Below are positions 14,033 through 63,958 of a DNA stretch of 64,000 nucleotides, one piece after another. The translations under genes were made by a program, and so were the position numbers. Numbering within the stretch: the stretch's first letter is position 1; the number at the start of each line of letters is the position of its first letter. Origin of the DNA: Polyangiaceae bacterium. Its GTDB lineage: Bacteria > Myxococcota_A > Polyangia > Polyangiales > Polyangiaceae. The stretch lies in NCBI GenBank assembly GCA_044224495.1, contig JBGAKG010000027.1, positions 29,521 to 93,520 of the forward strand, read 5' to 3'. The notes beneath the pieces are model-generated. The model saw nothing but the letters and a program-made list of their open reading frames with translations, searched no databases and had not been told where the DNA came from.

Positions 14033-15085
14033 TCAGATCTTCCCCGCCTTGATCATCTGCCAGAAGTAACGCTCGACGATGTGGTCGTGCATCAAGATGA
14101 CCTTGAGCACGTAGACCGGCGGATCGAGCTCGTCGATCTTCGGGAGCTCACCGCTCGGCTCGAAGTTGCCGAGCGCGTCCTCGTTGGTCGCGTGGAGCCA
14201 CTCGCGCGCCTTCGAGCGGAGCGCCTCGCTCTGGGGCATCGCCCCGCCTTTGCGCGAGTAGAGGAGCCCGAAGCGGCGCGGGTGGGCGTTCGTCGGATCG
14301 AAGCGCTTCGGGTCCGCGCTGAGGAAGCGCGCGATCGCCGAGTGCTCGGGGTAGAGGTAGAACGCGTCGAGCAGGTAGAGCTCGGTCGGCTCGATGCCGC
14401 CGTGATCCAGGATTGGCTCGAGCGCCTGGTACCCGCCGGACGACGCCATGAGCGCGAGACGGTCGATGTCCTCCACGCGGTGCCGACCGATCGTGGGACC
14501 GAGCGCAGCGAGGAGCTCGCCGAGGAACGCGCGGAACTCGCCCGGCTCGCCGAGGTGGCCGGGATCGCTGCTCGCGGCTTGGGCGTACGCGATCTCGGGG
14601 ACGACGAGGATCGCGCCCGTGCCGGCGCGCTCCATCTGGACCGGCAAGTCGTAGCCGGTGCGCGTGTCACCCCCGCCGGGGATGCAGGGGAGCCCGTGGG
14701 GGCTCACGTAGCTGTCGATGCAGTTCTTGAACCCGTGGAAGATGACGATGAGGTGGAGGGGCGCCTTCGGATCGTACGCGCGCGGCACGTAGACCCACGC
14801 GTTGGGCTTCCCGAACGGTGCATCGAAGCCGTGCTCGAGGCGGAACGTCAGCGTGGCCGAAGGGTGCGTGCCCGGGCCGGCGTCGCCGATCGCCGCCGCG
14901 CGGACGTGCGCGGGCTCGCGGGGCGGGGCGGGCTCGGACGTGAACGCCGGCGCGGCCCAGTGGGTGATCGGCTCGGGGTCCGGCGGCGGCGCATCGTGCG
15001 CGAGGCCGGCGCGCAGCACCTCCACCACGACGAACGTCCACGCGAACGCGTGAAGGACGAACCATCGCGGCACACGCAAAGGCAT
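14033..15085 (-). CDS. secreted alpha/beta-hydrolase-like hypothetical protein
   Basis: N-terminal signal/TM. IVIFHGF and LALMASSGGY resemble the nucleophile-elbow context of an esterase. Confidence 0.5.
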   Translation of the reverse strand: MPLRVPRWFVLHAFAWTFVVVEVLRAGLAHDAPPPDPEPITHWAAPAFTSEPAPPREPAHVRAAAIGDAGPGTHPSATLTFRLEHGFDAPFGKPNAWVYVPRAYDPKAPLHLIVIFHGFKNCIDSYVSPHGLPCIPGGGDTRTGYDLPVQMERAGTGAILVVPEIAYAQAASSDPGHLGEPGEFRAFLGELLAALGPTIGRHRVEDIDRLALMASSGGYQALEPILDHGGIEPTELYLLDAFYLYPEHSAIARFLSADPKRFDPTNAHPRRFGLLYSRKGGAMPQSEALRSKAREWLHATNEDALGNFEPSGELPKIDELDPPVYVLKVILMHDHIVERYFWQMIKAGKI

Positions 15086-15133
15086 GGAAGCTTGCAGATA
15101 TCACGGATGGCGACACGATCGAAAATCCGTGAA

Positions 15134-15685
15134 ATGCTCGGGCCGGAAATGAACTCTCGCCGAGCAATCACCACTGCTTCGATGTTCACCTCCGGCCTCG
15201 CTTTCGTCGCGACGACCTTCGTCGCCGCGAGCGCCTTCGCCGCGCCGCCCGAGGACTGTCCCCCCGGCAGCGTGGGGAAGGAAGAGGGCGCGTTCCAGTG
15301 GTGCGAGCCCACGGTCTGCCTGACCGATGCGGACTGTCTCGGCGGCAAGCAGGTCTGCCGGCCGATGCCGCTGTGCGTGGAGATCGGCAACGTGGCCGAT
15401 GGCGCCACGGGGAAGCGGCTCGTCGTCCACAACAAGTGCGCGGCGAACAAGGAGTGCCCGGCGCAGACGACGTGCCTGGAAGGCAACCGCTGCATGGACA
15501 AGGAAGCCGCGGACCGGATGGGGATCTTGGTGGCCGACGCAGGTGCGCCGCCGGAGCCGCCCAAGAAGTCGATCTGCGGGTGCTCGGTGCCGGGTGTCGC
15601 GACGAGCGATCTCGCGTGGCTCGGACCGGTCGCGCTGGCGGGGGTCGCGCTCCTGCGCCGGCGACGGTCGAACGCTCGCGGCTGA
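15134..15685 (+). CDS. MYXO-CTERM domain-containing secreted Cys-rich protein
   Basis: Signal peptide. The C-terminal CGCSVPG...LAWLGPVALAGVALLRRRRS is the MYXO-CTERM sorting tail (Cys motif, TM helix, Arg cluster). Confidence 0.7.
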   Translation: MLGPEMNSRRAITTASMFTSGLAFVATTFVAASAFAAPPEDCPPGSVGKEEGAFQWCEPTVCLTDADCLGGKQVCRPMPLCVEIGNVADGATGKRLVVHNKCAANKECPAQTTCLEGNRCMDKEAADRMGILVADAGAPPEPPKKSICGCSVPGVATSDLAWLGPVALAGVALLRRRRSNARG

Positions 15686-15712: not shown

Positions 15713-15861
15713 TCGATTCTTCACGTGCCCGTGCCCGTGCCCGTGCCCGTGCCCGACCGCGGGCACACGAGACGAAACGTCGGGATCGCTCGGCGCTGGA
15801 TTCCCAGAGTGACGAGCTGCCAGCATCGTCGTTCGGGCACGGGCACGGGCACGGGCACGGG
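15713..15861. repeat. hexamer-TIR hairpin element, copy 1: (GTGCCC)5 ... (GGGCAC)4 around an 80-nt core
   Basis: A perfect inverted stem of at least 27 bp, made of GTGCCC hexamers, flanks a core that contains GAGCTGCCAGC. Intergenic, between two plus-strand genes. Confidence 0.7.
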
Positions 15862-15928
15862 CACGTGATCGCGGTCGAGGACTGAGAGTGTAAGACGCCG
15901 CTCGGGTCGCGCGTATTAGCATCGACCC

Positions 15929-16897
15929 ATGACGTTCTCCCGCTCCCGCGTTCCCCTCCTCGTCCTCGCGCACCTCGGTCTCGTCCCGTTCGTCGCCTGC
16001 AAGGAGGACGACACTCGCGTCGTCGCACCGATCGGGAGCGCCTCCGCCACCGAGTCGGCGACCGCACCCGGCTCCGCGACCGCGACCGCGCCCGGCTCCG
16101 CGACCGCGAGCGCCACGGCGACTGCGACCGCGACGGCCACCGCGACGACGAGCGCCGCGCTGAAGCCCGGCGAGTGCCGCGAGGATCGCGACTGCCCGCC
16201 GTACGCCGAGTGCTCCACCGCGAAGGCCTACCCGCCCGGTTCCCTCGGGCACTGCGTCGAGCGCGAGCACTACAACCTCGGGCGCCCGCTCGTCGTCGCC
16301 GGGCAGGCTCACGTCGCGCCGTACGCGCGCCCGCTCGCCATCACGTCGGCGGAAGCCGCTGCGCTCGCGCGCGCGGCCCGCGAAGAGCACGCCAGCATCG
16401 CCGCCTTCGCGCGCACGATCAGCGAGCTCATGGCGCTCGGCGCACCGACCTGGCTCCTCTTCGAGACGCAGAGCGCCCTCGCCGACGAGATCCGGCACAC
16501 CGAGCTCACGCTCGACGCGCTCGCGCGACTGACCGGCGAGCCGCTGGTCCTCGGCCGACTCCCCGCCGCAGCGGCGCCTCTCCGCGGAGGCCCTGCTGCG
16601 GCGGAGGAGCTCTTCCGCGACGTCTTCCGCGGCGGTGCCGTCGGCGAGACGATCGCCGCCGCGAGCGCGGAGCAAGCGCGCGACGCTGCAACCAACGACG
16701 AGCTCCGCGCGCTCTACGACACGATCTGCCGCGACGAGGCCAAGCACGCAGCGCTCGCGTTCAAGACGCTGCGCTGGTTGCTCGGCGAACAGCCGGAGCT
16801 CGCGAGCGTGCTCGGCGAAGAGAAGGAGCGTCTCGCACGCGAGGGCACGCTCGAAGAGCGGCTCCTGGTCGCTCCGTTGCTCGACGTCCTCGGTTGA
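15929..16897 (+). CDS. ferritin-like domain lipoprotein
   Basis: Lipobox FVAC. An (Ala-Thr)n linker encoded by GCGACC repeats. The C-terminal region EEHASIAAFARTISELMALGAP...EIRHTEL is ferritin-like. Confidence 0.6.
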   Translation: MTFSRSRVPLLVLAHLGLVPFVACKEDDTRVVAPIGSASATESATAPGSATATAPGSATASATATATATATATTSAALKPGECREDRDCPPYAECSTAKAYPPGSLGHCVEREHYNLGRPLVVAGQAHVAPYARPLAITSAEAAALARAAREEHASIAAFARTISELMALGAPTWLLFETQSALADEIRHTELTLDALARLTGEPLVLGRLPAAAAPLRGGPAAAEELFRDVFRGGAVGETIAAASAEQARDAATNDELRALYDTICRDEAKHAALAFKTLRWLLGEQPELASVLGEEKERLAREGTLEERLLVAPLLDVLG

Positions 16898-51589: not shown

Positions 51590-53302
51590 TCAGGCCTTGC
51601 TGGGCTCGCCGTCTTCCTCTTCGTCCTCGTCGCTGTCTTCGTCCTCGTCCTCGTCGTCTTCGTCTTCCTCGTCGTCGGCCGGCTTCTTCGCCACCGGCTT
51701 CGACTTGGCGGGCGCGGGGGACGCTTCTTCTTCTTCTTCGTCCTCGTCCTCCTCGTCCTCTTCGTCTTCGTCTTCGTCGTCGTCTTCCTCGGCGGCAGAC
51801 GTCTTCGACGTGACGGGCGGCGCCTTCGCGGTCGGTGCGTCGTCGTCGACCTCGTCGTCCTTTTCGTCCTCGTCCTCCTCGACGTCCGCCGGGACGGGCT
51901 TCTTCGCGACGACCTTGCCTTTGGCGGGGGCGCCCTTCTTCGGGCGCTCCTCTTCCTCTTCGTCTTCGTCGCGCTTCTTCTTGCGCTTCGCTTCGGCCTT
52001 GAGCGCGCGATCGGAGAGATCCATGACCGCCATCGCGGCACGTGGGTTCTTCCGCGCTTCGTTCCAGAGCTTCGCGTAGAAGTACGCGACCGCGAGCGCC
52101 GTCAGGAGCCCGATGAACTGGCTGGTGGAGAGGTTGTACGGATCGGACTCGAACTGCTTGGTGCGGAGCACCCAGAGCGCGATCGGCACCGGCACGAACG
52201 CGAACGCACGCGCCGCGGTCCGCGTGCGCGGATCCGGGATCGAGAGGGACGGCCCGAACGTGAACGCGATCGCGAACAGGAAGAGCGCGAAGCCCACGAG
52301 AAGGTACTTGTCCATGCGCGGGGGCACGTCCCCACGCTCCGCGTCGTCGCGCCAGAGCTCGAGCAGGAACCGCAGGAACCCGTACGCGAACGCGAACAAG
52401 AAGAAGATCTGCCCGCGGAACTTCTGGTGCCGCCGCGCCCAGAGCAGGAACGCGAAGAGACCGAGCCCGATCAGCGCCTCGTACAGCTGCGTCGGGTGAA
52501 CGGCGAAGGAGTGGTCGCCGGGATCGACGCAGTTGAGCTCGCCGTTGGTGCGGCAGCTCTGGTACTGCGAGAGGTGGTGGGCGAACGCAGGGGACCCGAT
52601 GATGGGGTTGCCCTTGTCGTCGTAACCGAGCGTGCCGTCGGCGAGGTGCGGGAAGGTCCCGAGCTTGCGGAGCCAGCCGGGCGAGCCGTCCCCGAGGCGC
52701 GTGCCGAAGTCGCAACCGAACAGGTAGCAACCGATGCGCGTCACGAGGAGGCCGCTCGCGAGCGACGGCACCGCGACGTCGGCCCAGGGCAGGAGGCGCA
52801 CGCTCTTGGCGCGCAGGTAAGCCCAGCTCCCCAAGAACCCGCCGATGAATCCGCCGTAGGCGACGAGACCACCGCGCCGAAGCGCGAACCAGTCGGCCAC
52901 GGTGTCGAACTGGCTCGGGTTCGTCACGATGTACAAGAGTCGCGAGCCGACGAGCGCGGCGAGCGCGGTGATGACGTAGCAGTTCGCCATCGTCTCTTTG
53001 TCGAGCCCGTCCTTCTCCGCGAGCGGGAGGGTGACGTACCAACCGATGACGAGCGAGAGCCCGAGCATCACGCCGTACGAGTAGATGGGGATGTTCTCCG
53101 CCTTGAACTCGCTCGCGCGGAAGTACCAGGCGCCGAAGCCGGCCGCAGCCGCGACGACGAGCCCGGTCATGGCATCGCTCTTCTCGTTCCGACGGCGAGA
53201 CCAGAGCCCGTAGATCGCAGCGATGGCGGCGACCGCGACGAGCGCCCACCACAGCTTCAGTGGTCGGTTCGGCAGCGGGATTCGAAAGAGTATCGGGTGC
53301 AT
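51590..53302 (-). CDS. lgt: prolipoprotein diacylglyceryl transferase with long poly-acidic C-terminal extension
   Basis: HPTQLYEAL and the Lgt signature region G.LVTRIGCYLFGCDFG. Multiple TM helices. A C-terminal tail of about 150 aa is rich in D/E/K/A. Confidence 0.8.
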   Translation of the reverse strand: MHPILFRIPLPNRPLKLWWALVAVAAIAAIYGLWSRRRNEKSDAMTGLVVAAAAGFGAWYFRASEFKAENIPIYSYGVMLGLSLVIGWYVTLPLAEKDGLDKETMANCYVITALAALVGSRLLYIVTNPSQFDTVADWFALRRGGLVAYGGFIGGFLGSWAYLRAKSVRLLPWADVAVPSLASGLLVTRIGCYLFGCDFGTRLGDGSPGWLRKLGTFPHLADGTLGYDDKGNPIIGSPAFAHHLSQYQSCRTNGELNCVDPGDHSFAVHPTQLYEALIGLGLFAFLLWARRHQKFRGQIFFLFAFAYGFLRFLLELWRDDAERGDVPPRMDKYLLVGFALFLFAIAFTFGPSLSIPDPRTRTAARAFAFVPVPIALWVLRTKQFESDPYNLSTSQFIGLLTALAVAYFYAKLWNEARKNPRAAMAVMDLSDRALKAEAKRKKKRDEDEEEEERPKKGAPAKGKVVAKKPVPADVEEDEDEKDDEVDDDAPTAKAPPVTSKTSAAEEDDDEDEDEEDEEDEDEEEEEASPAPAKSKPVAKKPADDEEDEDDEDEDEDSDEDEEEDGEPSKA

Positions 53303-53362
53303 GGCGGGTGCGTTTTTACCCGAAACCAACCCGGGGTGCACCTCCCGTGCTAAGTCTCGGCC

Positions 53363-54289
53363 ATGCGCACCGCTTCGGCGTCGGCACGGCAAGCTCTCGT
53401 TCTCGTCGGCCTCGCCGCGTGCGGGATCGGGGTGCTCGTGGCCTGTATCCCTTCGGGCAATAGCGTCCCGTCCGAGGCGGGGCCCTCGACGTCGACCGCG
53501 GCAGCCACGCCGACGAGCACGTTCCGCCCGTCGATTGGGGTCATGTCGATCCCCTTCGAGGACAATTTCGAGCGCGCTTCGGCGCCGATCGCCACCGCGA
53601 CGGTCCTCCTGCCGACCCCGGCGCTGAGCGCGCTGAACCTGGGTGACGCAGGGCCCGCGGGCGATGCGGCGCGCGGGGATGCGGGTCCGACCCTGGTGGC
53701 TCCGACGGCCTCGATCGCCGTCGCCCCGCCCGACGACCTCGGCCCCGACTGGCGCCAGGCGCAGACCAACGTCTGGCACATCGAGAACGGGCGCCTCTGC
53801 GGAAAGAACGCCCACAACCACGGCGTCTGGCTCCAGCGCGTGCTCCCGATGAACGCGCGAATCGAGTTCGACGCGATCAGCGACTCGCCCGACGGCGACC
53901 TCAAGTCCGAGCTCTGGGGCGACGGCCAGTCCGGCGCGACCGGGATCTCCTACACGAACGCCACGAGCTACCTCACCATCTTCGGCGGCTGGCACAACAA
54001 GTACCACGTGCTCGCGCGCATCAACGAGCACGGCTCGGACCGGCAGGAGATCGAGATCGACCCGAAGAGCGACGACCCGCGGGAGCGGCCGGCGGTCAAA
54101 GGCCAGCTCTACCACTTCAAAGTGGAGCGGACCGACGGGCGGACGGTGCGTTGGTTCGTCGACGGGATAGAATGGCTCAAGTTCACCGATCCCGATCCGT
54201 TGATCGGTTTCGGGCACGACCACTTCGGCTTCAACGACTGGGAAGTGAAGGTCTGCTTCGACAACGTGAAGGTCACGCCGCTTCCCTAG
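53363..54289 (+). CDS. lipoprotein with C-terminal DUF1080-like (concanavalin-like) domain
   Basis: Lipobox LVGLAACG, a low-complexity linker, and a C-terminal WHIENGRL...FGGWHNKYH region like the 3-keto-disaccharide hydrolase/DUF1080 fold. Confidence 0.55.
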   Translation: MRTASASARQALVLVGLAACGIGVLVACIPSGNSVPSEAGPSTSTAAATPTSTFRPSIGVMSIPFEDNFERASAPIATATVLLPTPALSALNLGDAGPAGDAARGDAGPTLVAPTASIAVAPPDDLGPDWRQAQTNVWHIENGRLCGKNAHNHGVWLQRVLPMNARIEFDAISDSPDGDLKSELWGDGQSGATGISYTNATSYLTIFGGWHNKYHVLARINEHGSDRQEIEIDPKSDDPRERPAVKGQLYHFKVERTDGRTVRWFVDGIEWLKFTDPDPLIGFGHDHFGFNDWEVKVCFDNVKVTPLP

Positions 54290-54331
54290 CCTCAGCCACC
54301 TGGCCCGCCACGTCCGAGAGGGGTCCTTTTT

Positions 54332-55534
54332 TTGGAGCAATCGGAAGTCGAGATCCTCGTGAACGAGCTCGAGACGCGGGTGGACCGTCTCCGCTCGCTC
54401 TACGATCAGTACTTCATGGGGATCGAGCGCGTGCCGCCGGCGGTACCGCACAAGGACGTCGACCGGCGCGTGCAGGTGCTGCGGCGCGAGCAGATCCGGA
54501 ACACGGGTCTGCGCTTCCGTTTCCAGATGATCGTGCAGCGCTACAACACCTTCCAATCCTATTGGATCCGGATCTGCCGCCAGATCGAAGAGGGCACCTA
54601 CAAGCGCGACGTGTTGCGAGCCAAGCGAAAGGAGGTCGAGCGCGTCGCACGAGAGAGCATGCCGCCGGCCTCGATCGACATCACGGGGGATCTCGAGCTC
54701 GAGGAGGTCGAGGACCTCGAGGCGCTCCTCGCGGACGAGGCCGAGACCACGGCGAAGGGTGGGCTCGCGCCCGCGCCGAGCGCGGCGAAAGCGCCGCCGG
54801 TGCCCGCCGCGAAGCCGTCGCCTCCGGCCCCGGCCGCGAAGCCCGCTCCCGCGCCCGCCGCTGCGAAGCCGGCGCCGGCGCCGCTGAAGCTCGACGATCT
54901 CGACGATTTCGACGCGCTCGGTGAGAAGCCGACGAAGCTCCGCAACGAGCCGGCTGCCGCGAAACCGGCGCCCGGGCCGGCGGCGCCGGCGAAGCCCGGC
55001 CCGGCCGCGCCCGTCGGCCCCGTCGCGGTGGCGCCGATCGCGGGTGCGGGTGGCGCGAGGCCGGTGTGGAAGAAGGTGTCGGCGCCCGCAGCCGGGGTCT
55101 CGATCCCGATCGCGACGCCGAACAAGCCCATCGTCCCCTCGGCGGCGCCCCGGGTGGAGCCGCCGAAGCCCGAGCCGAAGCCCGAAGCGCCGAAGCCGGA
55201 GGCACCCCGACCGGCGGCCGCGGCGGCACCTGCCGCCAGCGCGGCAGCCGATGCAAAGAAGCCGGTTCGTCCGCGGCCGGAGCAGCCGCCTCCCCGCAAA
55301 CCGCTCGGGCCGAGCGACCTACCCGATGCGCGGGTCCGGCAGATCTACGCCGAATACGTGCGCTCGAAGCGGGCGCAGAACGAGTCGACGGCGGCCCTCA
55401 CCTACGAGTCGATGGCCAAATCCATCCGCGACTCGTCGGAGAAGCTCCGCGACAAGCACGGCGGGAAGATGGTGGACTTCGAGGTCTCCGTCAAAGACGG
55501 GAAGACCATCCTGAAGCCGGTCGTGAAGGGCTGA
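54332..55534 (+). CDS. hypothetical protein with Pro/Ala/Lys-rich central linker (myxobacterial conserved)
   Basis: Structured N-terminal domain (about 110 aa) and C-terminal domain (about 90 aa) separated by a long PAAKP-type repeat linker. Confidence 0.5.
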   Translation: MEQSEVEILVNELETRVDRLRSLYDQYFMGIERVPPAVPHKDVDRRVQVLRREQIRNTGLRFRFQMIVQRYNTFQSYWIRICRQIEEGTYKRDVLRAKRKEVERVARESMPPASIDITGDLELEEVEDLEALLADEAETTAKGGLAPAPSAAKAPPVPAAKPSPPAPAAKPAPAPAAAKPAPAPLKLDDLDDFDALGEKPTKLRNEPAAAKPAPGPAAPAKPGPAAPVGPVAVAPIAGAGGARPVWKKVSAPAAGVSIPIATPNKPIVPSAAPRVEPPKPEPKPEAPKPEAPRPAAAAAPAASAAADAKKPVRPRPEQPPPRKPLGPSDLPDARVRQIYAEYVRSKRAQNESTAALTYESMAKSIRDSSEKLRDKHGGKMVDFEVSVKDGKTILKPVVKG

Positions 55535-55556
55535 CGGCCTGACTAAAAGCGGCGGC

Positions 55557-55793
55557 TCAGTGGCCGCGCGCGCGGAATCCCTCGTCGTCACCACAGAATA
55601 CGATCGCGCAGTGGCTCATCGCGTTGGCTTGAATGCGGGCGCAGAGCTCGACCAGGTCCTCGTCCGAGTCGACGACACTTCCTTCGACCGGCTGCACCGT
55701 CCGCCCATCGTAGCGGCAGTCATCCAGGGCGACCCAACGCCCACGGAAGTCATGGTGCTCTCGAATCTGGCCCCAGCTCAAACGACTCATCAT
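55557..55793 (-). CDS. small hypothetical protein (78 aa, DUF5678-like)
   Basis: WVALDDCRYD...VVDSDEDLVELC. Compact, plausible small protein. Confidence 0.4.
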   Translation of the reverse strand: MMSRLSWGQIREHHDFRGRWVALDDCRYDGRTVQPVEGSVVDSDEDLVELCARIQANAMSHCAIVFCGDDEGFRARGH

Positions 55794-55834
55794 TCAGAGA
55801 CGACCTCTTCCCCCCGAGTCACTACGCGCGTACG

Positions 55835-55895
55835 CCCGAGACTCTCGGTGCGTTGCGGTCCCGTTCCAAGTACGAAACCGGTTCGGAACGTACCC
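55835..55895. promoter_or_regulatory. palindromes in divergent promoter region: CCGAGACTCTCGG and GTACGAAACCGGTTCGGAACGTAC
   Basis: A perfect 13-bp palindrome, and a longer imperfect palindrome built around AACCGGTT, lie between divergent genes 55557..55793 (-) and 55969..58746 (+). Confidence 0.35.
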
Positions 55896-55968
55896 CTCGT
55901 ACACCTGGCGGAAGGGAGCGGTCAAGAAACCGCCCCCGTCGGCGGGAGTACACCCCGAGCGGAAATCC

Positions 55969-58746
55969 ATGCGAACGTCGTCCAAATTCTTGGTTTTTGG
56001 GCTCATTTTGGCCTGTGGGGCGCCGGCGCTGCCGATGGCTCCCCCGCTGGGAGGGGCCATCCCGACCCCCCCGACGAGCCTAGAAGGTAGCAACGCGAAC
56101 CATCTCGGTGCTTCCGGCGGGTCAGGGCCTCGTTCCCAACCGACGCTCCTCGCGACCGGCGACTACCTCACGCCCGAGGCCGCTCCGGGCTCGGTGCTCC
56201 TCCCTCTCGCCCCCGGTGATCCGCCGAACGTTCGCGATGCCTTCGCGGTCTCCCTCGCGCTCGATGGGCACGGCGCCCTTGCCGTCCTGACCAGCGGCTA
56301 CAACCGCGGCTCCTCCGGCAAGCGGCCCGAGCACGTCTATCTGTTCGACGTGGCCAAGGGCGCCCCCGCCCCCGGCGAGATCCTGTCCCTCCCGAACGCC
56401 TTCTGGGGCCTCGCCTTCGCCGGCGGGACCCTCCACGTGAGCGGCGGCTCCGACGATGCCGTCGCCGCCTTCCCTCCCGGCGCCGAGCCCGGCACCCACG
56501 CGGCGCCGGTCGTCACGAAGCTCGGGCACAAGACGGGCCTCGGGCTCGGACAGAGCCCCTACGCCGCCGGCCTCGGTGTGCTCCCGGACGGCACCGTCGC
56601 CGTCGCGAACCACGAGAACGACTCGCTCTCCCTCGTCGCGGCCGGCAGGGTCGGCGCCGAGATCGACCTCCGCCCCGCCACCGGCATGGGCGGCGACTTC
56701 CCCGCCGGGGTCCTGGTCGTGGGCGACCTCGTCTACGTCACCACCCAGCGAACCGGCGAGCTCCTCGAGGTGTCCCCCAAGGATCGCAAGGTGACCCGCC
56801 GCCTCCGCGTCGGCGCCCAGCCGACCAAGCTCGTCGCCACCCACGACGGAGCCACGATCTTCGTCGCCAACGCGGGGAGCGACACCGTCAGCGTCGTCGA
56901 CCGCGCGGCGTTCACCGTCACCGAGTCGATCCCGGTCGTCCCCGCCCTCCCCGACCTTCCCGCCGGCGCGACCCGCGGCGCCAACCCCAACGGGCTCGCG
57001 CTCGCCCCCGACGAGCGCACGCTCTGGGTGAGCCTCGGTGGGCTCGACGCGGTCGGCGTCATCGAGCGCGGAGACGCCGGCGCCCACCTGGTCGGCATGA
57101 TCCCGACCGGCTTCTACCCGAACGACGTCGCCGTGACCGCCGACTGGGTCTACGTCGCGTACGGCAAGAGCTCGACCGGGCCGAACCCCGGCGGGCCCCG
57201 CGCGTCGAAGCCGCCCGAGTTCGGGCCGACCGGCGGCGACGCGTTCTCCCTCTCGCTCCTTCACGGCGGGCTCCACGCGTTCCCGCGCCCGAGCGGCGCG
57301 GTCCTGGCGGCGCTGTCTCGGCAGGTGCTCGTCAACGCGCGCCTCGCGAGCCCGCCCGCCGTTCCGCCGATCTTCGAGGAGCTCCGCGGCAAGGTGAAGC
57401 ACGTCGTCTTCGTCGTCGGCGAGAACCGCACCTACGACCAGGTCCTCGGTGACCAAGCGGGGGCCGACGGTGATCCCTCGCTCGTCCACTGGGGCGACGC
57501 CAACACCCCGAACCAGCACGCGCTCGCGCGAACCTTCGTCACGTTCGACCGCTTCTTCGCCAGCGGCGGCGTCTCCGGCGACGGCTGGCAGTGGACGGTC
57601 GCGGGCCGCACCACCGACCTCACCGAGAAAGAGGTCCCCCTGATGTACGCGAACCGCGGCGAGCACAGCTACGACTGGGAGGGCTCGAACCGCGGCATCA
57701 ACGTCGGTCTCCCCACCGTCGCCGCGCGCCAGGCGTGGAACCCGAAGACACCGAGCGATCCGCGCCTGCTCCCCGGCGTGAGCGACGTGGCGGCTCCGCA
57801 TCAAGATGCGCCGTTCCTCTGGGACGTCGCGCGCGCCGCCGGGCTCGGCGTGCGGAACTACGGGTGCTTCGCCGAGGACGTCCGCTACGGCCTCAAGGAG
57901 AAGGACCCCGGGTTCGTCCCGCTGCTCCGGGATCCGGCAAAGACCAAGACGCGGGTCGCGTTCCCGAGCGCGCCGGGGTTGCTCGAAGCGACCGACCCCT
58001 ACTTCCGCGGCTTCGACATGCGCTTCCCCGACGCGTGGCGCGTCGACGAGTGGCTCCGCGAGTTCGCGCTCCAGGAGAAGCAGGGCACGTTCCCCGCGCT
58101 CACGCTCGTGCGCCTGCCCCACGATCACTTCGGCAGCTTCAAGAGCGCCGCCGCCGGGCTCGATACGCCCGACACGCAGATGGCCGACCACGACTGGGCG
58201 CTCGGGCGGCTCGTCGAGCGGCTCGCGAAGAGCCCATTTTGGGACGACACCGTCATCGTCGTCGTCGAGGACGACGCGCAGGACGGCGCGGACCACGTCG
58301 ATTCGCATCGGAGTCTTCTCTTTCTGGCCGGGGGTCACGTCGCGCGCGGCGTCGTCAGCCACCAGAGCTATGCGACACCGAGCGTGCTCCGCACGATCGA
58401 GCTGCTCCTCGGGCTCGCGCCGCTGGGCCGCAACGACGCGGTCGCCCCGCCGATCGCGGATGCGTTCTCGGCGACCGCGCTCCCTGCGGCGTTCAGCGCG
58501 CGCGTCCCCGACGTGCTCCGCACGACCAAGCTCGACCTGCCGCCCGCACCCACGGCGACGGCGCTCGTCCGCCCGCGCGGCGACGCCGCGTTCTGGGAGG
58601 CGCGAACGGCGGGGATGGACTTCTCGCGCGAAGATCGAGTGCCGACGGCCGAGCTCAACGAGGCGCTCTGGTGCGGGCTCGTCGCCCCCGACGGCTGCCG
58701 GACGCGAACCGCCGTCGCGGAGCGCGACGAGGACGACGACGACTAA
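55969..58746 (+). CDS. lipoprotein: N-terminal YVTN-type beta-propeller fused to phosphoesterase-family (phospholipase C / acid phosphatase AcpA-like) domain
   Basis: Lipobox LILACG. Propeller blades (TIFVANAGSDTVSVVD etc.). VVFVVGENRTYDQVLGD matches the phosphoesterase family signature. Confidence 0.75.
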   Translation: MRTSSKFLVFGLILACGAPALPMAPPLGGAIPTPPTSLEGSNANHLGASGGSGPRSQPTLLATGDYLTPEAAPGSVLLPLAPGDPPNVRDAFAVSLALDGHGALAVLTSGYNRGSSGKRPEHVYLFDVAKGAPAPGEILSLPNAFWGLAFAGGTLHVSGGSDDAVAAFPPGAEPGTHAAPVVTKLGHKTGLGLGQSPYAAGLGVLPDGTVAVANHENDSLSLVAAGRVGAEIDLRPATGMGGDFPAGVLVVGDLVYVTTQRTGELLEVSPKDRKVTRRLRVGAQPTKLVATHDGATIFVANAGSDTVSVVDRAAFTVTESIPVVPALPDLPAGATRGANPNGLALAPDERTLWVSLGGLDAVGVIERGDAGAHLVGMIPTGFYPNDVAVTADWVYVAYGKSSTGPNPGGPRASKPPEFGPTGGDAFSLSLLHGGLHAFPRPSGAVLAALSRQVLVNARLASPPAVPPIFEELRGKVKHVVFVVGENRTYDQVLGDQAGADGDPSLVHWGDANTPNQHALARTFVTFDRFFASGGVSGDGWQWTVAGRTTDLTEKEVPLMYANRGEHSYDWEGSNRGINVGLPTVAARQAWNPKTPSDPRLLPGVSDVAAPHQDAPFLWDVARAAGLGVRNYGCFAEDVRYGLKEKDPGFVPLLRDPAKTKTRVAFPSAPGLLEATDPYFRGFDMRFPDAWRVDEWLREFALQEKQGTFPALTLVRLPHDHFGSFKSAAAGLDTPDTQMADHDWALGRLVERLAKSPFWDDTVIVVVEDDAQDGADHVDSHRSLLFLAGGHVARGVVSHQSYATPSVLRTIELLLGLAPLGRNDAVAPPIADAFSATALPAAFSARVPDVLRTTKLDLPPAPTATALVRPRGDAAFWEARTAGMDFSREDRVPTAELNEALWCGLVAPDGCRTRTAVAERDEDDDD

Positions 58747-58778
58747 GGTTAGTGCCCGAATCGCTCAGGCCCTTCTTC

Positions 58779-58933
58779 GTGCCCGTGCCCGTGCCCGTGC
58801 CCGTGCCCGAACGACGACGCTGGCAGCTCGGTTCCGTGGAGCAGAGGAACCTCCAATCGGCCAGCCGCACCCAAAGCTTCATTCTCGCTCGCTCGCTCGC
58901 TCGCCCGCGCTCGGGCATGGGCACGGGCACGTG
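58779..58933. repeat. hexamer-TIR hairpin element, copy 2 (inverted orientation relative to copy 1): (GTGCCC)5 ... GGGCATGGGCACGGGCAC, with internal (CTCG)5
   Basis: The reverse complement aligns with copy 1 at both ends (TCGAWTCTTCACGTGCCC... and ...GAGCTGCCAGCRTCGTCGTTCGGGCACGGGCAC...). Sits between convergent genes. Confidence 0.7.
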
Positions 58934-58950
58934 AAGATTCGAGATTGGGT

Positions 58951-60018
58951 CTAGCGCCGCGGGAACAGGAGCTGCAGCGGCAGCGCGATGCGCGACGCCC
59001 ACGACGCCGCGTCGTGCGAGTGCCCCGGGAACACGAGCCGGTGCAGATCCACACCGGCCGCGTACTCGTAGCCCTTGAGCGCGTGGAACATGGACCGCGT
59101 GTCGTGGAAGCCGTCGCGCACGTTCACGTCGCGCTCGTCCGCGCGGATCGAGGCGCCCGAGTCGACGTAGAGCGAAGGGCGCGGATTCGGCACCGGACCG
59201 CGCTCCGCCGCCCGCACCGCCCAACGATGCGCCCACCAGAACGAGCTCGAGAGGCACGCGGCCTTGCCGAACACCTCCGGCTTCGACCAGGCGGCGAAGA
59301 ACGCGAAGAGCCCGCCCATCGACGAGCCGAGGATGCCCGTGTTCGCCCGATCGGGGAGGACCCGGTACTTCGCGTTCACGTGCGGGCGGAGCACGTCGAC
59401 GATGTCGGCGAGGAGCTTCGGCCCTTCGCCGCCGCCGTGCTTCGGATCCGGCACCGGGCTCAGCCGCTCGATCCGGCGCTCGGACGTGTGGATGCCGACG
59501 ACGATCAGCTCCTCGAGCGCGTCGAGATCGTCGAGCCGATCGATCGTCGCATCCAGGTTCCAGACGCCGAACGGATCGGTCGACGTCGTCCAGAGCGACT
59601 GACCGTCGAGGACGTAGAGCACCGGGTAGTGCTTGCGCTCCTGCTCTTCGTACGTCTGCGGGAGGAGCACGTCGAACGTGAGGGGACCGTGGGGCGTCGT
59701 GATCGTCTCGGTCGGCGCGAGGAACGTGCGCTCGCGATCGAACGCGGGCTCGAGCACCAGCCGATCGCCCGCTTGGACCACGTAGTTGCGACCCTTCGCC
59801 CAGTCGGTCTCGTCGCGAACGACCTTGAGCTCGAGCTGCTCGCCCGGCGGGACGTCGACGTGGAACGTGTGGCGATCCTCGTGGACCTTCGACGGGTACT
59901 TCGTCTCGTCCCACGAGAGGGGCGCGTGGCTCCCGCGGAGCCCGATCCGCCAGCGCTCGGCGGGGTAGATCACCTCGACGATGGTGGGTTTCGGGGACGG
60001 GACGATGCTCACTCGCAT
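58951..60018 (-). CDS. esterase (putative esterase family, enterochelin-esterase-like with N-terminal Ig-like domain)
   Basis: Start placed at MRVSIV. YPVLYVLDGQ and GSSMGGLFAFFAAW match the nucleophile elbow of the family. Confidence 0.7.
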   Translation of the reverse strand: MRVSIVPSPKPTIVEVIYPAERWRIGLRGSHAPLSWDETKYPSKVHEDRHTFHVDVPPGEQLELKVVRDETDWAKGRNYVVQAGDRLVLEPAFDRERTFLAPTETITTPHGPLTFDVLLPQTYEEQERKHYPVLYVLDGQSLWTTSTDPFGVWNLDATIDRLDDLDALEELIVVGIHTSERRIERLSPVPDPKHGGGEGPKLLADIVDVLRPHVNAKYRVLPDRANTGILGSSMGGLFAFFAAWSKPEVFGKAACLSSSFWWAHRWAVRAAERGPVPNPRPSLYVDSGASIRADERDVNVRDGFHDTRSMFHALKGYEYAAGVDLHRLVFPGHSHDAASWASRIALPLQLLFPRR

Positions 60019-60095
60019 GTTCAAAGCTTCGTTCCTCTCGGGTTCGACGGGACGTCCAGGACCAGGACCGGAGCGCATGCTACCTTTTCGCGCCC

Positions 60096-61403
60096 ATGGA
60101 AGCGCAGCCGGTCAGCCACCCGCCCTTCGCGCTGGGAGCGATCCGCCGATCGCTCGGTGCGATCCCCTTCTACCAGAAGCACCGCGCCGCCGAAGGGCGC
60201 GCCTCGCTCGGCGAGCTCCTCGCCGAGCTCCCCCTCCTCTTCAAGAAGGACGTGCGCTCGGCGCTCCCGAAGGCGTGGGTTCCCGCCGGGCGCGACCCGC
60301 GCGCCGAGCTCGCTTCGGGCGACCTCGAGATGGTCGAGACCAGCGGGAGCACCGAAGAGCGGCTCCGCATCCTCTGGGACAAGGGCTGGTGGCTGAACCA
60401 GGAAGAGCGCGCGATGCGCACGAACCCGGTCATCGCGCGCTGCCTCGATGCCCCGGGCTACCGCGAGGCCATCCTGACCACGCCCGTGTGCGGTGGCGGC
60501 GTGTGCCACACCGGCGACCTCTCGTACGAGGAGCGCTGCGACGAGCATCGCGTGTTCCTCAACATGAAGCCGGACCCCACCTTCTGGCGCGCGCCCGACA
60601 TGGACCGGATGGTCGACGAGATCGCGCGCCACCGCACGGTCGGGCTCGAGGCCGATCCGGCGTACCTCGCCGCGCTCGCGCGCCACGCCGCCGAGCGCGG
60701 CCGCACGATCGACGTCGCCGGCTTCACCCAGCTCACGTACGCGTTCACGACGCGCGCGCACCTTCGTTCGATCCGGCTCGCGTACCAGGGCCCGATCTTC
60801 CAGCTCTACGGCGCGAGCGAGGTGGGCGTCCTCTTCATGGAGGGCGACGACGGCTTCCTCCACCACTCGCCGTTCACGACCCACGTCGAGCTCCTGCGCG
60901 CCAAGGTGGCGACGCCGGGTGCGAGCGACGTCGCGCTCGTCGTCGTGAGCACGCTCGATCGCGTGGCGCAGCCGCTCCTCCGCTTCGTCGTCGGTGATCT
61001 CGTTCAGATCGCGCCCGAGGCGCCCCGCCGCTTCACTTCGGTCCCGGCGCTCCGCAGCATCGAAGGGCGCGTCCAGGACGCGGTCGTCCGGCCCGACGGC
61101 GCGCTCGTCACGACCGGTGCGATCGACCGCGCGATGGACGCGCTCACCGACCGCGTGCAGGACTACCAGGTGACCCAGGACTCGCCGGGGACGGTCACGG
61201 TCGACGTGGTCGCTCGGAGCGGCGCCACCGGCGCCGAGACCGCCGCCCGCGACGCGCTGGCCCAGCTCTTCGAGGGGCTCGTCGTCACGGCGCGCAAGTC
61301 GGCCGCGATCCAGGCCGAGGCGAGCGGCAAGTTCCGCATCGTCCGGCGCACGTTCCCGATCGACGTGGCGAAGTCGTTCGAAGCGCGCGCGACCGACGGA
61401 TGA
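60096..61403 (+). CDS. phenylacetate-CoA ligase-like adenylate-forming enzyme (PaaK/CapK/F390 synthetase family)
   Basis: ETSGSTEERL (SGST-type AMP motif) and the family-typical length. Stop overlaps the sufS-like start. Confidence 0.7.
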   Translation: MEAQPVSHPPFALGAIRRSLGAIPFYQKHRAAEGRASLGELLAELPLLFKKDVRSALPKAWVPAGRDPRAELASGDLEMVETSGSTEERLRILWDKGWWLNQEERAMRTNPVIARCLDAPGYREAILTTPVCGGGVCHTGDLSYEERCDEHRVFLNMKPDPTFWRAPDMDRMVDEIARHRTVGLEADPAYLAALARHAAERGRTIDVAGFTQLTYAFTTRAHLRSIRLAYQGPIFQLYGASEVGVLFMEGDDGFLHHSPFTTHVELLRAKVATPGASDVALVVVSTLDRVAQPLLRFVVGDLVQIAPEAPRRFTSVPALRSIEGRVQDAVVRPDGALVTTGAIDRAMDALTDRVQDYQVTQDSPGTVTVDVVARSGATGAETAARDALAQLFEGLVVTARKSAAIQAEASGKFRIVRRTFPIDVAKSFEARATDG

Positions 61404-62599
61404 CGCTCGCCGGCCAGGTACGCAAGGACTTCCCGCTCCTCGCCCGCGAGTACGAGGGGCGCCCGCTCGTGTTCCTCGACAGCGCGTCGACGACGCCGAA
61501 GCCGCGCGTCGTCATCGATGCGGTGCGCGACTACTACGAGCACAAGACCGCCAACGTGCACCGCGGGGTGCACTTGCTCGGCGAGGAAGCCACGGACGCG
61601 TACGAAGCCGCCCGGATCGAGGTCGCGTCGCTCGTCGGTGGGCGGCCCCCCGAGATCGTCTTCGTCCGCGGCACGACCGAGGCGATCAACTTGGTCGCCC
61701 ACGGGCTCCGCCTGAAGGAGGACGACGAGATCGTCTTCGCGGCGAGCGAGCACCACGCGAACTACCTCCCCTGGAGGGTGCACGGGAAGCCGAACGTCGT
61801 CCCGATCGATGGGGAAGGCATCCCATTTTGGTACAAGGTACCCGAGATGCTCGGGCCGAAGACGCGCCTCCTCGCGATCGGCCACGTCTCGAACGTCACG
61901 GGCGCGATCGCGCCGGTGGACTTCCTCGTGACCGAGGCGAAGAAGCGCGGCATCCCAGTCCTGCTCGACGCGGCGCAGTCGCTCAGCCACCTCCCGCTCG
62001 ACGTCGGAGCGCTCGGCGTCGATTTCGTGGCGGCCAGCGCGCACAAGGCCTTCGGGCCGAGCGGCGTCGGGTTCCTCTGGGGCAAGAGCGATCGCCTCGC
62101 CGAGCTCGCGCTCTACCAGGTCGGCGGCGGCATGGTCGCGATGAACGAGGACGACGCGATGATCCCGCGCGACGTCCCGTTCCGGTTCGAGGCGGGGACC
62201 CCCGCGATCGAGGCCGCGATCGGCTTCGGCGCGGCGGTGAAGTGGCTCCGCGCGGTGGGGCTCGACGCGGTGCGCGCGCACGACCTCGCGATCCTGGAGT
62301 CGCTCCTGGCCGGGCTGGACGCAATCCCAGAGGTCCGCGTGCTCGGGCGCAAGCTCCGCCACGACGAGCGCATCGCGCTCGCGACGTTCGTCGTCGACGC
62401 TCCGGCGATGACGCAGGAGAACGTGGCCCGCGCGTTGTCCGACACGTTCGGCGTCTGCGTCTCGGGCGGGTTCCACTGCGCCCACGTGCTCCACGCGCGC
62501 GCGAAGCTGGACGGAACGGTCCGCGCCAGCCCGCACGTCTTCAACGACGCCTCGGACCTCGAGCGGCTGTTCGAGGGCCTTCGCGAGATCGTCGGTTGA
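61400..62599 (+). CDS. cysteine desulfurase-like class V aminotransferase (SufS/CsdA family)
   Basis: FLDSASTTPKP, the HKTANVHRG context and the PLP-Lys region SAHKAFGPSGVGFLWG. 399 aa. Confidence 0.8.
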   Translation: MTLAGQVRKDFPLLAREYEGRPLVFLDSASTTPKPRVVIDAVRDYYEHKTANVHRGVHLLGEEATDAYEAARIEVASLVGGRPPEIVFVRGTTEAINLVAHGLRLKEDDEIVFAASEHHANYLPWRVHGKPNVVPIDGEGIPFWYKVPEMLGPKTRLLAIGHVSNVTGAIAPVDFLVTEAKKRGIPVLLDAAQSLSHLPLDVGALGVDFVAASAHKAFGPSGVGFLWGKSDRLAELALYQVGGGMVAMNEDDAMIPRDVPFRFEAGTPAIEAAIGFGAAVKWLRAVGLDAVRAHDLAILESLLAGLDAIPEVRVLGRKLRHDERIALATFVVDAPAMTQENVARALSDTFGVCVSGGFHCAHVLHARAKLDGTVRASPHVFNDASDLERLFEGLREIVG

Positions 62600-62660
62600 G
62601 ACGCTCAGGCGGTCCCTAAAGTCGGCGCCGCTCGGGCCGTACCCATCGTCGAGGGACGCC

Positions 62661-62873
62661 ATGAAGCCGCTCACGCGCATCGACCCGCACACCCAGTGGA
62701 TCCACGCCGACGACCTCCCCACGATCGTGCCGCACGCCCCGCTGCGCTTCGATCTCGACGCGGGGCTGAGCTCCGCGGACGACCAGAGCTTCGATCGCAA
62801 CGGCTACGGTGAAGAGTTCGACGTCTTCGCCGCGACCATGAGCGAGGCGCCGCCTCCCCTCGTGCGCGGCTGA
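62661..62873 (+). CDS. small hypothetical protein (70 aa), uncertain
   Basis: Good Shine-Dalgarno (GAGGGA) and acidic composition. Its 3' end overlaps the convergent YcaQ-like gene, so it may not be real. Confidence 0.3.
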   Translation: MKPLTRIDPHTQWIHADDLPTIVPHAPLRFDLDAGLSSADDQSFDRNGYGEEFDVFAATMSEAPPPLVRG

Positions 62874-63958
62874 GCCGAAGGCAGCTCGAGGAACTTCGCG
62901 AGTCGCGCGAGCTCCTCGTCGCGCCCTCGCCGGAAGGCGAGCCCACGCGGCGCCGTTCCCTTCACGAAGCCCAGCTCGACCGTGAGCGAGCCGGCCGCGA
63001 CCGACGCGTTCGCCCACCCGATCGCGTCGGCACCGAAGAGCAGCGGCAGCGCGTAGTAGCCACGGAGCCGCTTCTTCGCCGGCACGTAAGCCTCGAAGCG
63101 ATAGGGCCAGCCCCAGAGGAGCTCGAACCGCCGGCGATCCCACACGATCGGATCGAACGGCGCGAGGAAGCGCACGCCCTCCACCTCGACCGCGTCGCGC
63201 GGGGACTCTCCCGCGGGCCAGAGCCACTCGACGCCGTCCACCGTCGCCCGCGCCAGCGTCTTGCGCGCCCGCGCGAGCGCAGGTCGCAGCTCGCGGACGA
63301 GGTGCGGCGCCGCGTAGCGGAGCCGCCCGACCAACGCGCCGAAGGACGGCGCGGGGACCGGCGCGTACTTGTGGACCAGGAGCGCGACGAGCGCATCCGT
63401 CACGGCCGCGCGCGGCGCCGAAGCTCCTTCGTGAACGGCCGGCGCGTAGATGCGGATCCCGCCTTCGCGCCGCGCGACGCGCACCATGCCCCGGTAGTGC
63501 ATCCGCTCGAGCAGGTGCGTCGACGCGCTCGAGGTCCCTCCCCAGTAGTTCGTGATCGTGCCGTGCTCGAAGTGCGCGTCGACGTCGCGCGGGTGCACCT
63601 CGCCGCGCTCGCGGACGAACTCGAGGATCGCCGCGGCGCGCTTCGTCATCGTTCGGTCCCACGCCCGCCGCGGAGAACGCGGGTGCAGGAGCGAGACGTG
63701 CTCGCGCGGCAGGAACCCGTAGTTGATGAAGTGCTCTTCCTCGACGTCGAGCTCCGGGTAGCGCGCCTCGAGCATGCCGGCGACGTAGCCGGGGACGCGG
63801 TGGCGAAGCGTCAGGTCCTGCGCGCGCGCCGGGGCGCGAATCGGGTCGGCTTGGACGAACCCGAGCTGCTGGATCGCCGTACCGAGCGGAGCCGTGACGA
63901 GCGAGCGCGCGACGGCGTAGCGGCGGAGGGTCGCGAGATCGATCGGTCGAGCCGGCAT
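62804..63958 (-). CDS. winged-helix DNA glycosylase-like protein (YcaQ/AlkZ, DUF1006 family)
   Basis: WPYRFEAYVPAKKRLRGYYALPLL is characteristic of the YcaQ/AlkZ family. 384 aa. Confidence 0.65.
   Translation of the reverse strand: MPARPIDLATLRRYAVARSLVTAPLGTAIQQLGFVQADPIRAPARAQDLTLRHRVPGYVAGMLEARYPELDVEEEHFINYGFLPREHVSLLHPRSPRRAWDRTMTKRAAAILEFVRERGEVHPRDVDAHFEHGTITNYWGGTSSASTHLLERMHYRGMVRVARREGGIRIYAPAVHEGASAPRAAVTDALVALLVHKYAPVPAPSFGALVGRLRYAAPHLVRELRPALARARKTLARATVDGVEWLWPAGESPRDAVEVEGVRFLAPFDPIVWDRRRFELLWGWPYRFEAYVPAKKRLRGYYALPLLFGADAIGWANASVAAGSLTVELGFVKGTAPRGLAFRRGRDEELARLAKFLELPSAQPRTRGGGASLMVAAKTSNSSP

Follow-up and report, generated by a model that had tools for sequence, protein, structure and literature searches.

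The two hairpin elements of the window

The 64-kb stretch of DNA analysed here (64,000 nt of contig JBGAKG010000027.1 of a Polyangiaceae bacterium, contig positions 29,521 to 93,520; 70.3% GC; called the window below) carries, at two loci 43 kb apart, a small element that can fold into a long hairpin, the stem of which is built of tandem hexanucleotides, (GTGCCC)n on one arm and (GGGCAC)n on the other. We call the two elements copy 1 and copy 2 and number positions from the first nucleotide of the window; copy counts refer to the window. Their parts are as follows.

15713–15878, plus strand: copy 1, whole element, 166 nt; firm 5′ boundary, approximate 3′ boundary, proposed tips TCGA...TCGA
15713–15724, plus strand: copy 1 5′ terminal motif TCGATTCTTCAC, with 11 of 12 bases common to copy 2
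15725–15754, plus strand: copy 1 C-rich arm, (GTGCCC)5, from repeat reading and motif counts
15755–15812, plus strand: copy 1 variable core, different from that of copy 2, with small internal hairpins only
15813–15834, plus strand: copy 1 inner 3′ motif CGAGCTGCCAGCATCGTCGTTC, conserved, differing from that of copy 2 by one transition
15835–15864, plus strand: copy 1 G-rich arm, (GGGCAC)5, followed by GTGA, from repeat reading and motif counts
58744–58942, minus strand: copy 2, whole element, a 199-nt segment that is extra relative to the close relative L167/L168
58931–58942 (reads 58942–58931), minus strand: copy 2 5′ terminal motif TCGAATCTTCAC, its first base exactly at the insertion boundary
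58913–58930, minus strand: copy 2 C-rich arm, short, read along the element as GTGCCC GTGCCC ATGCCC, from repeat reading
58831–58912, minus strand: copy 2 variable core, 82 nt, unrelated to the copy 1 core and including (CTCG)6 on the plus strand
58809–58830, minus strand: copy 2 inner 3′ motif CGAGCTGCCAGCGTCGTCGTTC, conserved with copy 1 in the alignment
58779–58808, minus strand: copy 2 G-rich arm, which read along the element is (GGGCAC)5 and on the plus strand (GTGCCC)5
58747–58778, minus strand: copy 2 3′ tail GAAGAAGGGCCTGAGCGATTCGGGCACTAACC, with GATTCG and one additional GGGCAC unit

When the copies are aligned the similarity begins at TCGAWTCTTCAC, both ends are common to the two and the cores are unrelated, and so copy 2 is a reverse complement with matching ends and a different core, as a first-pass annotation of this DNA had described it. 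That annotation also gave copy 1 a (GTGCCC)5 arm, which agrees with our reading, and a (GGGCAC)4 arm, which in fact has five units; its perfect stem of at least 27 bp proves to be 36 bp long, within inverted arms of 39 nt (15721–15759 and 15830–15868, 97% complementary) whose arrays lie 80 nt apart (15755–15834). Motif counts, shuffles and inverted-repeat ranking all show that the hairpin it reported is real and far beyond chance. The 18-mer (GTGCCC)3 has 10 matches in the window with 0.01 expected, the paired inverted hexamer pattern has 5 matches vs none in 100 shuffles, and the two copies are by far the strongest inverted repeats of the 64 kb. Copy 1 folds as one long hairpin both as RNA (z = −8.9 relative to shuffles) and as single-stranded DNA (z = −10.5), and copy 2 has a weaker fold as RNA (z = −3.4).

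The inverted repeat of 36–39 bp begins 8–12 nt inside the 5′ boundary, and candidate tips of the elements are TCGA...TCGA or CGAATC...GATTCG, the GATTCG of the copy 2 tail being the inverse of the 5′ CGAATC. Resemblances noted by eye to sigma-54 −24 boxes, to parS (CACGTG) and to Bsp1286I sites did not fit on inspection.

Neither element has a Pfam match or open reading frame (ORF) support. The sole open frame, reading ...ELPASSF(GH)5 in both copies (15814–15885, plus strand; 58749–58829, minus strand) with a stop 7–10 codons later, might be taken for a small gene for a His-Gly repeat peptide, and the only difference in the conserved 22-mer (GCA/GCG) is synonymous in this frame. A single synonymous change is no evidence, however, the frame lacks a start codon and a ribosome-binding context, the core upstream of it is unrelated between the copies, and by symmetry the GH frame is mirrored on the opposite strand. 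A peptide gene is thus hardly credible here, and the frame is implausible as a coding sequence; it is probably a by-product of the repeat.

Gene neighborhoods and an empty site in a close relative

Copy 2 lies between two convergent genes, and each copy, in its own orientation, starts 8–28 nt past the stop codon of a gene on the same strand. The genes that adjoin the copies are:

15140–15685, plus strand: gene 5′ of copy 1, for a small MYXO-CTERM protein (TIGR03901, 21 bits, cut-off 20); start approximate, with a switch in third-position GC content (GC3)
15929–16897, plus strand: gene 3′ of copy 1, its other neighbor
55969–58746, plus strand: 925-aa beta-propeller/phosphoesterase gene, convergent toward copy 2, its poly-Asp C-terminus adjoining copy 2
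58951–60018, minus strand: esterase gene, its product 100% identical to the 355-aa protein P0001, its stop codon 8 nt upstream of copy 2 in element orientation

The nearest relatives of the flanking proteins are those of Polyangiaceae metagenome-assembled genomes (MAGs) and soil Myxococcota, which together with the MYXO-CTERM sorting signal points to a Polyangiaceae-like myxobacterial host. On either side of copy 2, over about 11 kb in all, the window is collinear with contig JGI 3300045256 of a close relative (locus L167); the blastn blocks are 52770–58743 (80.5% identity) and 58943–63949 (83.0%). Between the blocks the window has 199 nt and the alignment leaves only 6 nt in L167/L168, which is an empty site: in L167 two stop codons stand there 3 nt apart. 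One edge of the extra segment is the first base of TCGAATCTTCAC, and the opposite edge provides the TAA stop of the 925-aa gene. By this comparison of sequences, copy 2 is an insertion.

Copy 1 lies at a synteny break, since nucleotide similarity to three relatives (L170, L169 and L173) covers the genes on its 5′ side and ends with the 3′ end of the MYXO-CTERM gene. In the more distant relatives that were examined, no GTGCCC array is present at the copy 1 or the copy 2 locus. The gene on the 5′ side of copy 1 must be read with care. The ORF at 14081–15685 (534 aa) is by its third-position GC a chimera and not a gene; what it covers is a minus-strand gene at 14033–15085, divergent from the short plus-strand MYXO-CTERM gene at about 15140–15685. 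Elsewhere in the window, at 51600–51990, there are dense repeats of 3, 6 and 9 nt (CGTCCT, CTTCGT) that are unrelated to the hairpins and appear to be coding, belonging to a long ORF on the minus strand (51590–54556) as an acidic region of low complexity.

The hexamer hairpin in other genomes

When a single genome of each species was scanned for GTGCCCGTGCCC-N(80-110)-GGGCACGGGCAC, at least 117 loci were obtained, and the counts in this and the following sections refer to the loci so listed; phylum tallies among them are rough and come from record titles. At least some 52 loci are from Myxococcota, including Polyangiaceae, Kofleriaceae, Nannocystaceae and a single Sandaracinaceae MAG with 10 loci, at least 34 from Chlamydiota and at least 16 from Planctomycetota, together with single loci of Verrucomicrobia and Lentisphaerae, three of Legionellales (two of these in the isolate Legionella sp. 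W05-934-2) and a few others. The chlamydial and Legionella loci are 40–48% GC, so that the GC-rich stems stand out from AT-rich loops and flanks. A Polyangiaceae MAG of the same clade as the window (L072) also has a related copy, in which the inner motif takes the form GATCTGGCAGCGTCGTTTTTC.

A degenerate period-6 pattern extends at least 3 units outside the perfect runs; the base preceding the perfect run is C in 95% of arms, and the base after it is G in 82%, mostly as GA. Variant units are often complemented on the opposite arm (GTGAGC/GCTCAC, GTGTGC/GCACAC, GTAAAC/GTTTAC, GTGAAC/GTTCAC), and where both sides are off consensus 384 cells pair and 580 do not (40% paired; a count without shuffle control). 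The CCC/GGG tract, kept in the variants ATGCCC, TTGCCC and CTGCCC, is the best-conserved part of the degenerate units.

This last feature, with the C before the perfect run, could be expected if the conserved object were a G-quadruplex or i-motif acting as a DNA or RNA switch, as (GGGCAC)n with n of at least 4 is a canonical G3N3 motif that would compete with the hairpin, and the window arms do have five units. The perfect run, however, is only 2 units long in 119 of 236 arms, too few without their degenerate neighbors, a complementary arm is always there and would out-compete the quadruplex, and the common units GTGAGC, GTGTGC and GTGAAC break the G-tract and yet stay paired. We consider such a switch very improbable.

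The two arms need not occur together or in the same order. Solitary arms with the same junctions occur, and both pair topologies exist; L124 (2401–2545), for example, is "inside-out": its G-arm precedes its C-arm, and the junctions that usually face the loop (ATC/GAT) are on the outside, together with 27 nt of additional complementarity. In a Chlamydiae MAG (MFD01275.bin.2.9; L150, 169–1118) a 108-bp unit is tandemly repeated 8.8 times at 95% identity, and this unit is half a hairpin element, consisting of loop, G-arm and a fragment of an upstream terminator-like hairpin.

The idea that any hexamer makes hairpins of this kind was discarded: in 0.9 Mb of loci, only GTGCCC forms such pairs, besides the outer-extension units of the same elements. 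As a viral control, 2.9 million contigs contained 44 arrays of (GTGCCC)4 or longer, with no inverted pair at 80–110 nt, one at 40–70 nt and six direct pairs, and a blastn search against plasmids gave no match. A single genuine-looking hexamer hairpin was seen in the viral collection, on an IMG/VR contig of 70% GC (L257, 1634–1721), which could be prophage DNA or bacterial DNA that was wrongly assigned; the hairpin reads GTGCCC GTGCCC GTGTCC GTGTCC CTGCCC GAT...GATC GGGCAC GGGCAC GGAAGAAGG.

The only recurrent neighbors of the hairpins are genes for Hanks-type Ser/Thr kinases, found at 15 listed loci and adjacent at about 9 of them, one chlamydial (L072, L099, L100, L121, L122, L126, L129, L142 and L147). 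Since Myxococcota and Planctomycetota have very many such kinases, the link, weak by a rough estimate, is probably due to chance.

Bounded mobile elements that contain the hairpin

In three genomes the ends of the element can be defined, and in all three the hexamer stem is internal and the true terminal inverted repeats (TIRs) are other sequences. Legionella sp. W05-934-2 has two 200-bp copies, 92.5% identical, with a 19-bp TIR, CCTTTGTACCGGACAAAAA, and each copy has its own 7-bp direct duplication (AAAGTAT and AAAATAG). [quoted passage not shown] In the Sandaracinaceae MAG ten copies of 230 bp (L045, L052, L058, L078, L081, L094, L099, L104, L109 and L128) align from end to end between unrelated flanks, with termini TAGCAGGCTGC/GCAGCCTGCTA, and in a Parachlamydiaceae MAG the hairpin lies within a shell of about 190 nt with the TIR GAGACAATTGCAWAAGTC. 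The ends of the three shells are mutually unrelated, and thus the hexamer stem cannot be the tip signal that is read by their transposases.

The Sandaracinaceae element starts with TAG and ends with CTA and carries accessory mini-hairpins, including GCGCGCGAAGCGCGC and CCCTTCGGG; by crude gene calls, its tips may provide the stop codons of convergent neighbors. A TA duplication as in this family was considered for the window copies and does not fit copy 1, and it fits copy 2 only under special assumptions. In the Parachlamydiaceae genome (MGR_bin429) the same GAGACAATTGCAWAAGTC shell is also found at L123 (3801–4110) and L069 (7051–7397) with another hairpin, one that has CACAGAG-like short-repeat arms, and this difference in cargo suggests modular or nested palindromes.

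Gene setting and folding of the hairpins

The listed hairpins are intergenic, often 4–50 nt from stop codons, with 31 in convergent, 45 in co-directional and 13 in divergent gaps; 16 of them overlap a crude ORF call in high-GC DNA. Such a placing is usual for tolerated insertions, and it is also compatible with a terminator-like side effect.

The preference for the convergent and co-directional gaps, the position of the window copies just after same-strand stop codons and the extreme stability of the stems are what one would expect if the hairpin were a host terminator or an mRNA-protecting 3′-untranslated-region hairpin that evolved in place and does not move. Other properties do not agree with this. 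Neither window locus has a U-tract, a T-run or a match in a terminator scan, the loops are 70–110 nt long, 13 of the hairpins are in divergent gaps, and the sense strand is not favored in folding, which is better on the sense strand in 22 and on the antisense strand in 19 of the 45 co-directional cases. The orthologous gene pair at copy 2 does with 6 nt and no hairpin in the close relative, and copies in other genomes bear their own TIRs and target-site duplications. We find a purely host-derived terminator unlikely, and note that an inserted element could still have a terminator-like side effect.

The same observations bear on the possibility that the element is a structured small RNA (sRNA) or a cis-regulatory RNA family in which the conserved ends form a functional helix. 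The strong predicted fold of copy 1, the conserved ends and the partly compensated stem variants (the 384 paired vs 580 unpaired cells, again without shuffle control) are in its favor. Rfam, however, gives no gathering-score match in the window and no relevant one in 7 loci, and its weak matches are only to generic long-hairpin miRNA models (best MIR8622, 38.7 bits with a threshold of 197). The core differs even between the two window copies, a promoter scan finds a promoter-like site at neither locus, and the copy 2 locus is polymorphic for presence and absence. As folding shows no strand preference relative to gene direction, a symmetric DNA palindrome fits better than an RNA selected on a single strand, and we judge an RNA family quite improbable. 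The suggestion in the first-pass annotation that this might be just a conserved sRNA or terminator family is therefore not upheld, there being no Rfam match, U-tract, promoter-like site or strand bias.

RayT transposase genes near hexamer arrays in relatives

The closest relative (L170) carries, at its counterpart of the copy 1 locus, a gene for a 239-aa HUH/Y1 transposase (Pfam Y1_Tnp, 28.6 bits, cut-off 23). Its best NCBIfam model is the repetitive extragenic palindrome (REP)-associated tyrosine transposase, at 43.6 bits and so under the cut-off of 80, with the IS200 model at 19 bits; its paralogs are annotated by JGI as RayT, and its motif is Y-x4-N (YVLMN). At the same locus L169 has a 37%-identical gene. 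The RayT paralogs retrieved are:

L170, 2850–3569, minus strand
L254, 734–1453
L254, 2001–2717
L256, 2001–2717

All four genes have GGGGGATYC(GGGCAC)2-4 about 22 nt past the stop codon, and all four are preceded by long (CTTCCG/CATCCG)n arrays; (GCGGAT)n arrays are also present in the surroundings. Two of the genes, that of L256 and the second one of L254, are enclosed by hexamer arrays in inverted orientation, which are 187 nt long with 75% and 81 nt long with 93% complementarity, respectively. The RayT units of these relatives thus have (GGGCAC)n at one end, and their ends differ from those of the window copies.

A leader of about 100 nt, ending in ...GACGAACATTGCCCGTAATCAAATG, is conserved among all four. 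At the L170 locus there are also (RTCCGC)n arrays in two blocks, about 130 nt in length and with spacers that are conserved, and at 2240–2700 the (GGGCAC)n array that follows the RayT gene seems to be interrupted by a fragment like an IS3-family orfA, recognized by eye.

Interpretation and mode of spread

We think it probable that both loci are copies of a small noncoding, non-autonomous mobile palindrome of the MITE or REPIN type that arrived by insertion, and that its functional core is a long hairpin in which a degenerate period-6 array of (GTGCCC)n pairs with (GGGCAC)n. The empty site at copy 2, the synteny break at copy 1 and the bounded families in other genomes together support this MITE- or REP-like reading. 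The first-pass annotation had arrived at a non-autonomous family of this kind, and that part of it stands; its view of the arrays as terminal inverted repeats does not, as they form an internal stem wherever the ends can be defined. Likewise, the small repeat family it proposed exists and is not confined to one genome, since the stem motif spans several phyla.

Several observations weigh against this conclusion. Target-site duplications, which had been named as something to look for at the boundaries, are not visible at either window copy, also when copy 2 is compared with the L167 empty site, and inspection of the copies finds a clean TIR at neither. There are only two copies in the window, and in formal terms the L167 empty site might have arisen in the relative by precise deletion. 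No transposase, Y1 included, is encoded in the window or among the listed loci. As for RayT, the four paralogs are recent duplicates and so amount to one observation, and the arrays that bracket the genes are (CATCCG)n and not (GTGCCC)n. In 80 metagenomic RayT relatives of 42–58% identity there are no GTGCCC arms and almost no hexamer arrays, so a general association of RayT with such flanks is unsupported, and the tails of copies 1 and 2 resemble the modules downstream of RayT no more than shuffles do (P 0.1–0.5).

As a mobile palindrome, the element would be moved in trans by a transposase encoded elsewhere. The best current candidate for this mobilizer in the window lineage is a RayT-type HUH/Y1 transposase, which would act on the hairpin as extruded from DNA in single-stranded form; we regard this as a lead more than a finding. 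A classical shell with TIRs and target-site duplications is the carrier in other genomes. The number of hexamer units presumably drifts by replication slippage, with the pairing of the arms restored afterwards, as is suggested by the unequal and variable unit numbers and the compensated variant units. Copies would persist mostly just past stop codons, where they are common and probably do little harm, and those that are transcribed would add a very stable 3′ hairpin to the mRNA.

A broader possibility, which we put forward only tentatively and do not expect to hold in full, is that the hairpin is a distinct module, ancient or horizontally spreading, that miniature transposons unrelated to one another, in Myxococcota, the PVC superphylum and Legionellales, have captured or whose centers it has invaded, and that also serves as substrate for RayT-type HUH transposases whose genes are bracketed by hexanucleotide-microsatellite inverted repeats. 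If this were true it would be a "microsatellite REPtron", in which the structure recognized by the transposase is a tandem array with a freely varying number of units. We found no earlier description of a hexamer-hairpin class in Rfam or in the searchable literature.

REPs and MITEs are normally lineage-specific, and here one 6-nt stem unit is kept from 40% to 77% GC in at least four phyla, inside elements with unrelated transposition ends. Its retention points to a constraint on the hairpin itself, which might come from an enzyme that reads the hairpin, from the way single-stranded DNA or RNA behaves, or from an advantage that the carrier element gains. RayT genes with hexamer-array flanks bear on the relation between RAYT-like transposases and the repeats that these spread. 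In MAGs of myxobacteria and chlamydiae the hairpins are also markers of broken synteny and of insertion polymorphism, and they probably interfere with assembly and sequencing.

Comparison with known repeat systems

The Correia/NEMIS elements of Neisseria are bacterial MITEs that fold as long hairpins. Like MITEs, the elements described here are small (150–230 bp), noncoding, present in multiple copies, intergenic and polymorphic for insertion, and the Legionella family has both TIRs and target-site duplications. They are unlike MITEs in that their conserved feature is an internal stem of hexanucleotide arrays, common to elements with unrelated termini across phyla, and in that neither the window nor the listed loci gave a parent insertion sequence and the window copies show no target-site duplication. 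MITEs in general are the subject of a review (PMC10969869). The GC-rich palindromic clusters of organelles, for example of sponge mitochondria, are likewise GC-rich hairpins in AT-rich genomes; the hosts differ and the sequences are unrelated, and the likeness is an analogy only.

Bertels and Rainey are said to have described REPINs, in 2011, as REP doublets that form hairpins and are mobilized by RAYT/RayT Y1 transposases. The window elements resemble REPINs in being hairpins of about 100–150 nt with two inverted arms and a spacer, in being extragenic and in favoring the 3′ ends of genes. A further likeness may be the (GGGCAC)n near the stop codon of RayT genes in the closest relatives; 80 more distant RayT loci lack such arrays. 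Solitary arms and both topologies occur, as with REP dimers. The arms differ from REPs in that they are tandem hexamer arrays that cannot self-fold, and they have no conserved GTAG or CGTC tag (CGTC is in copy 1 only, not in copy 2). REPs are lineage-specific, whereas the same arm sequence recurs here across phyla, and some of the families move as elements with TIRs and target-site duplications.

The class 3 TnpA(Y1) transposases of Planctomycetes and Acidobacteria are associated with high-copy atypical hairpins that have a CnGA foot (Quentin et al. 2018, PMC6006769). There is a partial overlap in taxa, and in the hairpins described here a GA usually comes after the arm, so that it reads CCGA. 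Class 3 enzymes have the motif Y-x4-Q, in contrast to the Y-x4-N of the RayT proteins found here, which resembles the class 2 (RayT-type) Y-motifs (PMC6006769), and no class 3 gene lies near any hairpin of the listed loci.

The bracketed RayT genes have a parallel in the TIRtrons (TIRYT), which are RAYT-like genes with long TIRs, and not REPs, on their two sides (Di Nocera et al. 2013, PMC3733652). Their TIRs have a GGGGWSAS motif and can found moderately abundant repeat families (PMC3733652). Like TIRtrons, the RayT genes in L254 and L256 lie between long inverted repeats; unlike those of TIRtrons, the TIRs in L254 and L256 are degenerate hexanucleotide microsatellites of 80–190 nt.

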